Shown here piece by piece: positions 47,393-50,560 of a DNA stretch of 64,000 nucleotides (position 1 is its first letter; each line of letters begins with the position of its first letter). The notes below the pieces were generated by a model that did no database searches, was not told where the DNA came from, and saw only the letters and a program-made list of their open reading frames with translations. The DNA is taken from positions 128,001 to 192,000 of the forward strand of contig JAZAMN010000052.1 of NCBI GenBank assembly GCA_036229005.1. Direction: 5' to 3'. A program made the translations under genes and the position numbers. Origin of the DNA: Myxococcota bacterium (GTDB taxonomy: Bacteria > Myxococcota_A > UBA796 > CAJQPC01).

Positions 47393-47640
47393 GCGGCCGG
47401 GGTCAGGGGCCGGGGCTCAGGAGTCAGGTATCAGGTATCAGGACGGCTCGGGAGGGCTCGGCGACAGGCGACAGGCGACAGGCGACAGGCATGACGGAGA
47501 GCCAGGTGCAGGCGGTGAGGCTCTGACCGGCAGCGCATCACGCGGGGGCGGCTTCAGCGCCGGCGCTGGGCGGCCGGGGTCAGGGGCCGGGGCTCAGGAG
47601 TCAGGATCGGGTCTCAGGAGTCAGGTATCAGGTATCGGGC
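47393..47640. repeat. Heptamer-tract repeat module, opposite orientation to the downstream array
   Basis: 36-nt direct repeat at 47393-47428 and 47570-47605, CAGGTAT tracts, (GGCGACA)4 at 47460-47487. Confidence 0.85.
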
Positions 47641-47724
47641 ATCACGCCGGGGCAGGGTCCAGCGCCGACTCTGGCCCGGGCTGGCAGCACTTGCCGCCAC
47701 CTCCGGCGCCTCCCCTGCCCCAGA

Positions 47725-48005
47725 GTAGGCTGCCACCCCCAAACCTCACCTTCCACCTACGTCATCGCCGGTTGCCGGTCGCCGGTCGCCAGTCGCCGCC
47801 CAACACCTGACCTCCGATACCTGATACCTGATACCCACCCCGCACCAACGTCGGCTGCCACGCCCAAACCACCCCTTCCTCCTGCGTCATCGCCGGTCGC
47901 CAGTCGCCGCCCGACACCTGACCTCCGATACCTGATACCCGATACCCACCCGCCCCCAACGTAGGCTGCCACCCCCAAACCGACCCTTCCTCCTACGTCA
48001 TCGCC
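47725..48005. repeat. Tandem 111-125 nt units containing (G/A)GTCGCC and C(C/T)GATAC heptamer tracts; third unit interrupted by IS110
   Basis: Unit starts at 47725, 47850 and 47961; lengths differ by two heptamers. Confidence 0.88.
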
Positions 48006-48016
48006 TATGACTGTTT

Positions 48017-48210
48017 TTGGTGGTTTTCCACCTGCACGCACAGCACCCCATCACCTACAAGTCGCCCGCCCCGTTGAGGGCTAGGACCGGACCCGGGATG
48101 GGGTGCTGCTGTGGGCAAGAGGGCCTTAGTGATGCCTTGTCCCACGACCGATGTTGACAACGGACCTGTCGGAGAACTTCATAGGCGCGCCCCACATGCC
48201 CACAGCAGCG
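48017..48210 (+). ncRNA. Predicted IS110 bridge RNA
   Basis: 5' hairpin 48019-48032; 12-bp stem 48041-52/48097-108 enclosing the target loop; 13-bp stem 48105-17/48197-209 enclosing the donor loop; guide segments match the junctions. Confidence 0.8.
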
Positions 48211-48231
48211 TGCTCCAACACAGGAGCATTC

Positions 48232-49479
48232 GTGATCTATCTGGGAATCGACTGGAGCAAGTCAGAAATCGTCGTCGCAGTCAGCCAGGGGGGCGCTAAG
48301 CCCCGGCATCTGGGCAGCTTCGACCGCAGCCGAAAGGGGGTTGAGGGGCTCGTCAGGCGCCTTCGAAAGCAGGGCGCGTGTGGAGCTGATGCCATCGTCG
48401 GCGTGATCGAAGCGGGGGCGCCAGGGTGGCAGGCGCTGCTGCATGACGCGGGCATCGAGCTCCACGTCGCAGACCCCAAGCAGGCCAAGTCCTTCGCGGC
48501 CTCGCTGGGCTCCTCGGGTGCAAAGGACGACCGCCGAGACGCCGCTGCCCTGTGCCTGATGGCCCAGAGTCCGGTGCATCGTGGGGAGCGCTGGACGCCG
48601 CACGCCGGCGTGCACGCGCAGCTGGTGGTGCTGTCCAAGGGGCACCAGACCCTCAGTGAAGAGAGCACACGCGCGCGCCAGCGCCTCCGCGCCCTCCTCC
48701 GAGAGGAGAACACGGCGGTGGAGGCGCTGATCCGAAGCCTCGACGTCCACTGGTGTCACGCGCTGCTCCAGGCCTACCCCACCGCCTGGCACCTGGCGGC
48801 AGCCACCCCGGAAGCGCTCGATGCAGTCCTGGGTGGGACGCGCTGCCCAATGGACAAGCGCGCGGCGCTTGTCCAGGTCCTCGCCGATGCCCGCAGGTCG
48901 TCCTGGCAGTCCGAGGGACTGGCCCAGGTGCAGGGGTTGGTCATCCAGCAGTTGCTCACCCAGGTCTCCCTCCTCAAGGCCCAGCTCAAGGTCCTCGACG
49001 ACCGGATCGACGCCTGCCTGCAGCAGCTCACTGAGGCACAGCACATCATGCAGATCAATGGCATCGGCCGGCAGCTGACAGCGCGGATCCTGCGCTTTCT
49101 GGGGCCTCTCGAGGGCTCTGGGCAACGGGACCACGCGTCCATCGCGCTGGGCGTTGCGCCGGTGTTCCAGGGCTCGGGGACGGACCGGATGGGTCGGCCC
49201 AAAGGGCAGGTGCGAATGCGGAAGTCAGTCGACCCGCACGCGCGCGCCACGGGCTATCTGCTGGGGCGCCTGGCGACGCAGAACCTGGACTGGGCGCGGG
49301 CCAAGTACGCGGACGCGCTGGCGCGCGGCAAGAACTCAGCGACCGCGTACCGCATCGTCGCCCGCAGCATGCTGCGCATCATCACGGCAATCCAGAAGAC
49401 AGGGCAGCCCTACGACCACGACCGCTACGTGCGGCGCTTGAAGGCCAACGGCGTGCCGTGGGCGATGGGCCTTGGGTGA
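48232..49479 (+). CDS. IS110-family DEDD transposase/recombinase
   Basis: AGGAG RBS, GTG start; YLGIDWSK, IEAG, AKDDRRDA (DEDD); INGIG and GVAPVFQGSG with the conserved Ser. Confidence 0.93.
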   Translation: MIYLGIDWSKSEIVVAVSQGGAKPRHLGSFDRSRKGVEGLVRRLRKQGACGADAIVGVIEAGAPGWQALLHDAGIELHVADPKQAKSFAASLGSSGAKDDRRDAAALCLMAQSPVHRGERWTPHAGVHAQLVVLSKGHQTLSEESTRARQRLRALLREENTAVEALIRSLDVHWCHALLQAYPTAWHLAAATPEALDAVLGGTRCPMDKRAALVQVLADARRSSWQSEGLAQVQGLVIQQLLTQVSLLKAQLKVLDDRIDACLQQLTEAQHIMQINGIGRQLTARILRFLGPLEGSGQRDHASIALGVAPVFQGSGTDRMGRPKGQVRMRKSVDPHARATGYLLGRLATQNLDWARAKYADALARGKNSATAYRIVARSMLRIITAIQKTGQPYDHDRYVRRLKANGVPWAMGLG

Positions 49480-49510
49480 GATTTGGGTGGACGAAACGGT
49501 AGTGATGTCC

Positions 49511-49597
49511 GGTCCGGTCCCCAGTCGCCGGTCTCCGGTCGCCGCTCCCCTGCAGGGCCCCACCGATACCCGATACCCGACACCCGACACCCGATAC
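49511..49597. repeat. Continuation of the heptamer array right of the IS
   Basis: GGTCCCC AGTCGCC GGTCTCC GGTCGCC then five CCGA(T/C)AC copies at 49563-49597. Confidence 0.85.
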
Positions 49598-49690
49598 CCG
49601 GGCTGCCCGACCTGAACAGCCGGTCACACACTTGTTGGGTCCGGTCCCCCGCCGAGTCGGTTAGGGCCGGAGACCCAAAGCGAGGAACGA

Positions 49691-50560
49691 ATGAACTTCC
49701 AGGACCTGATCCTGGCCCTGCAGCGCTACTGGGGCGCCCAGGGCTGCGCAGTTCTCCAGCCCCTGGACGTCGAAGTCGGCGCCGGCACCTTCCACCCGGC
49801 CACCTTCCTGCGAAGCCTCGGCCCCAAGCCCTGGCGCTGCGTCTACGTTCAGCCCTGCCGCCGTCCCGGTGATGCGCGCTACGGCGAGAACCCCAACCGG
49901 CTCGGCCACTACTACCAGCTCCAGGTGCTGATCAAGCCCAGCCCCGAGAACATCCAGGAGCTCTACCTGGGCTCGCTGGAGGCCATCGGCATCGACCTGT
50001 CCAAGCACGACGTGCGCTTCGTCCACGACGACTGGGAGAGCCCCACCCTGGGCGCCTGGGGTCTGGGCTGGGAGGTCTGGCTGGATGGCATGGAGGTCAC
50101 CCAGTACACCTACTTCCAGCAGTGCGGCGGCCACGATCTCGGCCCCATCAGCGTCGAGCTGACCTACGGCCTGGAGCGCCTGGCCATGTACCTGCAGAAG
50201 GTGGACAACATCTTCGATCTCACCTGGGTCGACGGCATCTCCTACCGGGACGTCTACCTGGAGAACGAGAAGCAGCAGTCGGCCTACAACTTCGAGCACA
50301 GCACGGTCGAGGCGTTGCTGGCGAACTTCGACTTCGCCCAGTCCGAGTGCAAGCAGCTCGCCGAGAAGGGCCTGGCTCTGCCGGCCTACGACTACGCCTG
50401 CAAGGCCTCGCACCTCTTCAACCTGCTGGACGCCCGCGGCGCCATCTCCGTCGCCGAGCGCGCCCAGTACATCAAGCGCATCCGGGATCTGGCCTGCGCG
50501 TGCGCAGACGCCTACGTCGAGACCGAGTCCGGCACCACCCCCGCGCAGCAGGAGGCCTGA
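49691..50560 (+). CDS. glyQ: Glycine--tRNA ligase alpha subunit
   Basis: [58 protein letters not shown]. Confidence 0.97.

Follow-up and report, generated by a model that had tools for sequence, protein, structure and literature searches.

The window analysed here is a stretch of 64,000 nucleotides from a Myxococcota bacterium (GenBank assembly GCA_036229005.1, contig JAZAMN010000052.1, positions 128,001 to 192,000 of the forward strand), whose genome of 6.4 Mb has a G+C content of 70% and is assembled in 74 contigs. All positions below are those of the window. On the plus strand the window contains an insertion sequence (IS) of the IS110 group, the body of which extends from 48006 to 49508 (1503 bp, or 1505 bp counting one copy of the core dinucleotide) and consists of a non-coding left end of 226 nt (48006-48231), a recombinase gene and a right end of 29 nt (49480-49508). 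Judged from its sequence, the element is very probably an intact member of the group, and its left-end RNA is predicted to work as a bridge RNA of the IS621 type. The group features recognised comprise the DEDD domain, the serine of the Tnp domain, the layout of the ends, a two-loop fold and the complementarity of the target loop, the donor loop and the handshake bases. The features of the locus are the following:

47779..48005, + strand: host tandem repeat with a period of 111 bp, 2.0 copies and 91% matches (Tandem Repeats Finder), ending exactly at the insertion point
47999..48003, + strand: left target half-site (LT), CATCG, identical in 4/4 copies; contigs of the metagenome runs X1, X2 and X6 begin at 47999
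48004..48005, + strand: left copy of the core dinucleotide CC, common to both junctions
48006..49508, + strand: insertion sequence body, delimited by the junctions of all copies; 2/20 inverted match of the termini
48006..48011, + strand: TATGAC, containing the right donor half-site TATGA and a predicted -10 box, which would be completed only in the circular junction of right end and left end (RE-LE junction)
48019..48032, + strand: 5' stem-loop GGTGG-TTTT-CCACC of the minimum free energy fold, in a region that is variable in homologues
48034..48039, + strand: 5' strand GCACGC of the outer closing helix, which pairs with GCGTGC at 48208-48213 and encloses both guide loops
48042..48107, + strand: target-binding loop module, with stem 48042-55/48094-107, internal loop and distal hairpin 48068-81 (GCCC-CGTTGA-GGGC)
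48058..48066, + strand: putative left target guide (LTG), CAAGTCGCC, in which pairing with the real target ATCG-CC is limited to GTCGCC (48061-66)
48084..48092, + strand: putative right target guide (RTG), GGACCGGAC, made up of GGACC (for the right target GGTCC), GG (core) and the handshake bases AC (for GT, the last two right-end bases)
48108..48206, + strand: donor-binding loop module, with stem 48108-24/48189-206, internal loop and an extended distal hairpin at about 48137-78
48127..48136, + strand: putative left donor guide (LDG), TAGTGATG-c-C, in the sense of the right end TAGTGATG-T-C
48179..48187, + strand: putative right donor guide (RDG), TCATAGGCG, made up of TCATA (for TATGA), GG (core) and the handshake bases CG (for CG, the last two left-target bases)
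48222..48226, + strand: Shine-Dalgarno-like AGGAG, 5 nt before the GTG start; GGAG is kept in homologues
48232..49479, + strand: recombinase gene, GTG start, 415 aa, with D7, E60, D100, D103 and Ser315
49488..49493, + strand: TGGACG, predicted -35 box, which would lie 17 nt from TATGAC in a circle
49500..49508, + strand: left donor half-site, identical with the right end of the element, TAGTGATGT
49509..49510, + strand: right copy of the core dinucleotide CC
49511..49515, + strand: right target half-site (RT), GGTCC, identical in 4/4 copies; the metagenomic contigs of the element end at 49515

The recombinase open reading frame (ORF) is intact and all the catalytic residues are present. Profile searches returned the DEDD domain of IS110 transposases (PF01548, DEDD_Tnp_IS110) with an E-value of 2.1e-17 and 63.7 bits against a cut-off of 29, together with a marginal match to the Tnp domain (PF02371, Transposase_20; 22.2 bits against a cut-off of 21.3). 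The only solved structures matched were those of IS621 (5.3e-11) and ISCro4 (3.6e-10). Alignment of the GID, IEA, DxxD and SG motifs with the IS621 chain assigned the active-site positions D7, E60, D100, D103 and S315, the last of which lies in a GSG motif and is invariant in the 27 proteins of the clade to which the recombinase belongs. These comprise the window protein and 26 relatives found at 39-47% identity in a search of 5.8 billion proteins, the next-best matches having at most 28%; mutual identity within the clade is at most 47%, and identity to the next IS110 proteins about 25-28%. Six distant loci at 25-32% identity were found in genome contigs, and among 60 related genomes no complete relative was detected, the single match (locus L016, in genome G050) being a partial, decayed copy. 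The initial annotation had described the protein as a distinct bridge recombinase, which is right only insofar as its clade is divergent; the NCBIfam model NF033542, 'IS110 family RNA-guided transposase', scores above its cut-off (145.4 against 140 bits).

The stored gene call (P0001) is 427 aa long, hence 12 residues longer than given above, and starts at an ATG at position 48196, inside the donor-loop stem. We favour the GTG at 48232 on the basis of the homologue consensus MxxYxGVDWS and of the AGGAG box, both of which suggest a protein of 415 aa. The same genome also encodes a second, different DEDD transposase of the IS110 family (G000:C4:147677-148141; PF01548, 122.5 bits), in an open frame of 436 aa.

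The boundaries of the element were established by comparing its copies within the same genome, which contains one full copy and, at contig edges, three left ends and three right ends of additional copies. The left junction reads (C/T)CATCG-CC/TATGAC and the right junction GATGT/CC-GGTCC in 4/4 copies each, and in both cases sequence identity stops exactly at that point. The agreement of all these junctions therefore defines the element body as 48006-49508, the core as CC and the target as CATCG-CC-GGTCC, and the additional ends break at the same points that the initial annotation had proposed from the window copy. The dinucleotide CC flanks the element on either side and is the sole sequence common to the left and right junctions. 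Empty sites read CATCGCCGGTCC, with no duplication beyond the 2-nt core, and terminal inverted repeats are absent, as the two ends, compared in inverted orientation, agree at only 2 of 20 positions. The other right ends showed 0 differences from the window copy over 128-140 nt, and the other left ends 2 differences over 134 nt, near position 48014 and outside the guides. In detail, one T at about 48014 is missing and a nearby T of the window is replaced by G in the three other genomic copies and in the contigs of three metagenome runs (X2, X6 and X8). A further peculiarity of the window copy is its right flank (49511-49520), which reads GGTCC-GGTCC-CCAG, while the other three copies have GGTCC-CCGG; the extra GGTCC could be due to repeat slippage or be a trace of insertion.

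The same element was recovered in metagenomes. Logan contigs of four runs from four studies (X1, X2, X6 and X8) were examined, and in each of them the element appeared as a separate contig ending at 49515. The contigs of X1, X2 and X6, from three studies, start at 47999 and therefore span CATCGCC, the insertion sequence and CCGGTCC, while the piece from X8 has its start within the element, at 48027. Loose contig ends in these data carry other flanks, for example ..GCCATCG or ..AACGCCATCG before the element and CCGGTCGCC.. after it. A precise empty site corresponding to the window locus was not seen in the Logan contigs of the four runs, in which the joints listed fall in the flanking repeats and do not lend themselves to interpretation. 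The X8 variant differs by 15 substitutions and a 3-nt deletion at 48157, and its four guide segments are unchanged. That deletion and a T>C change at 48167 both lie in the long donor-loop hairpin, which suggests that this hairpin may be free to vary.

The structure of the left end was then evaluated by comparative folding. The single sequence folds alone at -98.5 kcal/mol (z = -3.5). An RNA alignment was built from the window element and eight metagenomic members of the clade (L017-L024), whose proteins are 31-44% identical to that of the window. The consensus fold of these nine elements contains 39 pairs, with 93.7% of the cells paired and 20 pairs showing compensatory changes. In control calculations, shuffled alignments gave a mean of 7.5 compensatory pairs, none of 500 shuffles reached 20, and slid partners reached at most 8. 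The changes are distributed over the whole fold: the outer closing helix (helix 1) has 6 pairs, 2 of them compensatory, with 96% of cells paired; the target-loop stem (helix 2) has 9 compensatory pairs out of 14; helix 3 shows a change from A-U to C-G in 4/9 sequences; and 7 of the 10 pairs in the donor-loop stem (helix 4) are compensatory. The long inner hairpin that the initial annotation had noticed in the donor loop exceeds that of each of the 8 homologues by about 15-17 nt. When a covariance model was derived from the nine sequences, it retrieved the L016 element, on which it had not been trained and which belongs to another genome of the same order, with 145.5 bits, and gave weak full-length matches in two distant IS110 loci, L058 (41.8 bits) and L056 (39.3 bits). 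A scan of 47500-50000 against Rfam 15, with E-values up to 1, returned no family for the left end and only a chance miRNA match inside the ORF.

The putative guides lie within the internal loops of this fold. The initial annotation had pointed out four strings (48058-66, 48084-92, 48127-34 and 48179-87), which were all found in place, and a script confirmed the three exact relations to the junctions or ends: GGACCGGAC and TCATAGGCG are exact reverse complements, the former of the right junction GTCCGGTCC (49507-15) and the latter of the left junction CGCCTATGA (48002-10), and TAGTGATG (48127-34) equals the right end at 49500-07, with one C/T mismatch following at the base before the core. None of these three strings has a second occurrence in the non-coding left end. 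When 48011-48231 was subjected to 200,000 mononucleotide shuffles, the three exact matches, in the order given, occurred 384, 160 and 290 times, and any two of them together 0 times; the matches of guides to junctions are thus real and not due to chance. The fourth string is the left target guide. Against the real target CATCG-CC it forms five Watson-Crick pairs (TCGCC) and one G·T wobble, beyond which two or three positions are mismatched, so that the earlier count of 5/9 matching positions was reproduced and rises to 6/9 when the wobble is included.

Two other matches to the left flank were considered and set aside. The stem strand CCCCATCACC (48047-56) agrees at 7/8 positions with the real left target CCATCGCC and might have served as an alternative left target guide, but the strand is kept in homologues whatever their target, with its changes compensated on the 3' strand, and we take the match to be a coincidence. 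A loop sequence CCTAC that matches the left flank of the window copy was taken as chance, as it has no counterpart in the flanks of the other three copies.

Comparison across the homologous loci showed that the guides change together with the sequences they are expected to recognise. The right target guide matches the right target, the core and the handshake bases in 4/4 loci with a known right end, always in a register 2 nt after the distal hairpin; it reads GGACC-GG-AC in the window, ACCGT-GG-AC in L021 (with one G·T), ATCCC-GA-AC in L022 and TTCGA-GG-AC in L023. The right donor guide is TCATA-GG in most elements, TTATA-GG in L021, where the left end is TATAA, and CATA-GA in L022, where the core is TC. 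In a similar manner the left donor guide tracks the right end, being TAGTGATG in the window, TAGTAATG (TAGTAATGTC) in L021 and TAGTGACG in L023; the C/T mismatch at the base before the core is present in both the window and L023. Over nine loci, the handshake guide of the donor loop agrees at 14/18 positions with the two bases that end the left flank of the same element, the mean for non-own flanks being 0.78 out of 2, and only 71 of 100,000 permutations reached 14/18. The left target guide follows its flank less closely; evaluated on the same nine loci with wobble allowed, it scored on average 6.67/9 on its own left target and 4.97 on the 72 non-own pairs; most loci reach 7-8/9, and in L017, L018 and L020 the match is a contiguous run of 7. 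The IS621-type layout, with LTG/RTG in one loop, LDG/RDG in the other and 2-nt handshake guides, is therefore supported by a shared covarying RNA whose loops track their own flanks. The further copies and the covariation analysis thus bore out what the initial annotation had claimed for the type of element and RNA, for the CC core and for handshake guides that match the junctions as they would be after strand exchange.

A different picture emerged for the target. All four genomic copies and the contigs of the four metagenome studies sit at CATCG-CC-GGTCC, the site being invariant in 4/4 genomic copies. The occupied site is the first junction of a heptamer array, where CATCGCC meets a GGTCCCC unit, inside a larger host repeat. 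In the window the 111-bp unit of this repeat contains ..GT(C/A)GGCTGCCAC, followed after about 26 nt by CGTCATCGCC and then by the arrays (GGTCNCC)n and (GATACCY)n; the general host module consists of CCCC-AAGTCGGCTGCCAC, about 26 variable nt, CG(C/T)CATCGCC and the (GGTCNCC)n array, often followed by the (GATACCY)n array. A pattern search of the genome returned 29 modules, of which 9 are followed by GGTCC and empty, 4 by the insertion sequence, 12 by GGTCG and empty, and 4 by other sequences. The initial annotation had described the guides as programmed against the heptamer repeat CCAGTCGCC; the 8/9 match of the left guide to this repeat is correct as sequence, but 0/4 copies are located there and all are found at (C/T)CATCG-CC-GGTCC. 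The element lies at the CATCGCC/GGTCCCC junction of the array, and the putative guides read heptamer-array sequence, but at one particular junction. The relaxed specificity that had also been suggested holds for the pairing, which is loose at the distal positions of the left target guide, and not for the site used, which does not vary.

The host module itself is a composite intergenic sequence that occurs both dispersed and as tandem units of about 111-300 bp. It is found in the window at 47395-48005 and 49511-49600 and elsewhere, for example, at G000 C45:44381-45480 and on C47 and C64, and the genome holds 76 arrays with at least 3 NGTYNCC units and 47 with at least 3 GAYACCY units. A REP-like element, a promoter array or a small-RNA array are candidates for its nature. 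No conserved stem-loop or other secondary structure was detected in 25 empty host modules, for which the alifold consensus was empty.

Several observations weigh against reading the element as an intact, bridge RNA-guided insertion sequence, and some of them concern the left target guide. Its pairing in the window is weak, with 5 Watson-Crick pairs and 1 wobble out of 9; it scores as well or better on the flanks of L017 and L018 (6+0 and 6+1) than on its own, and in L022 no match of guide and left target is seen (2+1 of 9). The 12-mer that would fit its 7 nt perfectly, AGTCGCCGGTCC, has two occurrences in the genome, neither of them in an array and neither occupied, and 10 GTCGCCGGTCC sites, for which better pairing is expected, are all empty. 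With regard to the structure, only 9-10 homologous RNAs were available and these are related, so that the shuffle statistics overstate their independence. As to expression and mobility, none of the 24 runs containing the sequence is on record as RNA, no circle junction was detected in the Logan contigs of the four runs, the -35-like hexamer of the window is poor (TGGACG, 4/6), and a scan for consensus promoters in the integrated element found none.

The observations on the left guide would be accommodated if the bridge RNA were real but the left target were chosen mainly by other means, that is, by the right target guide with the core and the handshake bases (a 'half-match') or by some other feature of the module, the left target guide with its 7-nt ideal AGTCG-CC having been inherited from a lineage with a slightly different target. 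We regard this as rather unlikely. In its favour, 4/4 copies are at CATCG and not at AGTCG, the window guide shows no preference for its own flank over those of other loci, 4/4 occupied sites belong to the repeat module and are preceded, at a distance of about 30 nt, by AAGTCGGCTGCCAC, and 0/10 of the GTCGCCGGTCC sites outside the module are occupied; moreover, modules followed by GGTCC are occupied in 4/13 cases and those followed by GGTCG in 0/12. Precedents can be found in two preprints, which report half-match insertion for IS621 (10.64898/2026.08.31.748434) and a target-side structural determinant for ISPpu10 (10.64898/2026.03.19.712850). However, the GTCGCCGGTCC sites outside the host module look coding, and selection may have removed insertions there; no common stem-loop was detected in the 25 empty modules; the left guide does track the left target across the homologues; TCGCC and the wobble still provide 6 contiguous pairs in the window; and the counts are small, with 4 insertions. 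Right-side and core pairing is perfect (7 nt and 2 handshake bases) and left-side pairing short, and two readings remain: either the left target guide controls insertion while tolerating distal mismatches, with selection against genic insertions, or the right half, together with the core and the handshake bases, dominates the choice of site.

The two other explanations that we considered question the RNA guide or its present function. It seems very improbable that the 5' structure is a mere leader regulating translation or stability of the transposase, with the end matches being internal copies of protein-binding ends. Such a role would agree with the proximity of the structure to the ribosome-binding site (48222-26) and the start codon, and the donor-side strings TAGTGATG and TCATAGG are conserved in the homologues together with the ends, which would also be expected of protein-binding repeats; however, the right and left target guides and the donor-loop handshake vary with the host flanks between homologues, which end-binding repeats leave unexplained, the guides lie in internal loops at the IS621 register, and the protein belongs to a family with demonstrated RNA guidance. 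That the element is a genuine IS110 now inactive, a fossil whose guide matches are only historical, is improbable, if somewhat less so. The failure to see a circle junction or an RNA and the weak -35-like box would be expected for a fossil, but the intact ORF with its full set of catalytic residues, the near identity of the other copies at both ends, the occurrence of the element with different flanks in metagenomes of several studies, and the unchanged guides of the diverged X8 variant all argue against inactivity.

On this basis a mechanism can be proposed by analogy with IS621. According to the published description (PMC11208158), the left target and left donor guides of IS621 have the sense of the top strand, the right target and right donor guides are complementary to it, the core is read by all four guides, and the 2-nt handshake guides following RTG and RDG pair with the other DNA after top-strand exchange. 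The window element would excise as a circle, joining ...TAGTGATGT-CC-TATGAC..., and this junction would bring the -35-like TGGACG to 17 nt from the -10-like TATGAC, which would allow transcription of the RNA and of the downstream recombinase message. Within a recombinase tetramer, the junction of the circle would be held in the donor loop, with TAGTGATGcC pairing to the bottom strand and TCATAGG to the top strand, and the target loop would hold CATCG-CC-GGTCC, with GTCGCC pairing to the bottom strand (one G·T wobble) and GGACCGG to the top strand. Exchange of the top strands at the CC core would then permit handshake pairing of the target-loop AC with the donor GT and of the donor-loop CG with the target CG.

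The promoter split across the RE-LE circle junction is a prediction, inferred from the spacing of these boxes. TATRAN is kept at the left end in 9/9 aligned elements, and -35-like hexamers, read by eye at 17 nt from it, are TGGACG/TATGAC in the window, TTGACA/TATGAG in L023, TTGACT/TATGAA in L022 and TTGCTG/TATAAC in L021. The decayed L016 element (G050:C12:63678-67031, reverse strand) offers a related observation: a right-end fragment ..TTGACAGATCCGTAGTGACGT directly adjoins a left end TATGACTG.. (1118-1140 of the reverse complement), with a single C in place of CC, and the joint reads TTGACA-16-TATGAC in genomic DNA. The bridge RNA of L016 is intact (the 145.5-bit match mentioned above), but its recombinase gene has a frameshift near residue 35 and a truncation near residue 160. 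The abutment may have remained from a junction that arose in tandem or from a circle.

Comparison with the characterised systems showed a close resemblance to IS621 and ISCro4 (IS622) in general organisation. These elements share with the window element a DEDD RuvC-like domain followed by a Tnp domain with a catalytic serine, and a long left end that specifies a 5' stem-loop followed by target-binding and donor-binding loops (PMC11208158, PMC11208160). With IS621 in particular the likeness extends to the strand senses of the guides, the presence of the core in all four of them and the 2-nt handshake guides after RTG and RDG, and also to the detailed register, namely a 2-nt linker, a 5-nt right target guide, 2 core and 2 handshake bases, and a 1-nt linker after the donor-loop handshake (PMC11208158). 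A natural G·T wobble in the left target guide is described for IS621 as well, and so is insertion into a host intergenic repeat, in that case REP (both PMC11208158, PMC11208160). The mismatch of the left donor guide before the core falls on the position that corresponds to the mismatch-tolerant position 7 of the IS621 left donor, and the promoter split across the RE-LE junction, predicted here, has been shown for IS621 (both PMC11208160).

The differences are equally clear. The window element has a CC core and its clade NC cores (CC, TC or GC), the second base being C in 9/9 left junctions, whereas the core of IS621 is CT with a nearly invariant T (PMC11208158, PMC11208160). The protein has 415 aa against 328 residues of the IS621 chain, to which it is only weakly similar (E = 5.3e-11), and from the aligned ranges we infer that the extra length probably separates the two catalytic domains. 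In this clade both loops are enclosed by a 6-bp outer helix, which may be a further difference, and the distal hairpin of the donor loop is extended in the window element. In addition, the right target guide already has 5 nt here, whereas wild-type IS621 pairs only 2 right-target bases beyond the core. Because of the C at the second core position, the distant protein of 415 aa, the outer helix and the expanded donor-loop hairpin, the element is not a member of the IS621/ISCro4 subgroup.

Two further groups are relevant for comparison. One comprises ISPpu10 and other IS110-family elements with REP-like intergenic repeats as their targets. In agreement with the preprint on ISPpu10 (10.64898/2026.03.19.712850), all copies of the window element are inserted at one position of a multi-copy intergenic repeat, but a GC-rich stem-loop on the target side is reported for ISPpu10 as a second specificity determinant, and no conserved one was found in the 25 empty modules. 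The IS1111 group has the same recombinase family and the same RNA-guided principle, but its RNA (seekRNA or bridge RNA) is described as lying in a long right end, with subterminal inverted repeats of 7-17 bp (PMC11208160), in contrast to the left-end RNA, short right end and lack of terminal inverted repeats of the window element. Durrant et al. (PMC11208160) report bridge RNAs of varied structure in 85.7% of the IS110 elements of ISfinder, and the present clade may already be listed in the ortholog tables of that work.

These findings leave the known mechanism unchanged, and the element represents a clear but ordinary member of the IS110 group. It provides a natural bridge-RNA element, cleanly and completely parsed, of a divergent and mostly metagenomic clade, with boundaries, core, target, four guides and two handshake guides that are directly legible and supported by copies and homologues, and a further case of an IS110 element that homes to a single position of a host intergenic repeat. 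The visibly under-matched left guide bears on how much pairing is needed for natural insertion. The recombinase and its RNA are a candidate pair with a CC (NC) core instead of CT, which would widen the range of addressable sites if active. We also advance, as a tentative and on balance unlikely proposal, that the clade may form a separate lineage of bridge recombinases, characterised by a fixed C at the second core position, a closing helix that joins the two guide loops in a three-way junction, and a natural target choice that depends on right half-site, core and handshake pairing, with only about 5 pairs on the left side. If this were true, the clade would represent a natural system leaning towards half-match insertion and a possible orthogonal tool for sites with an NC core.

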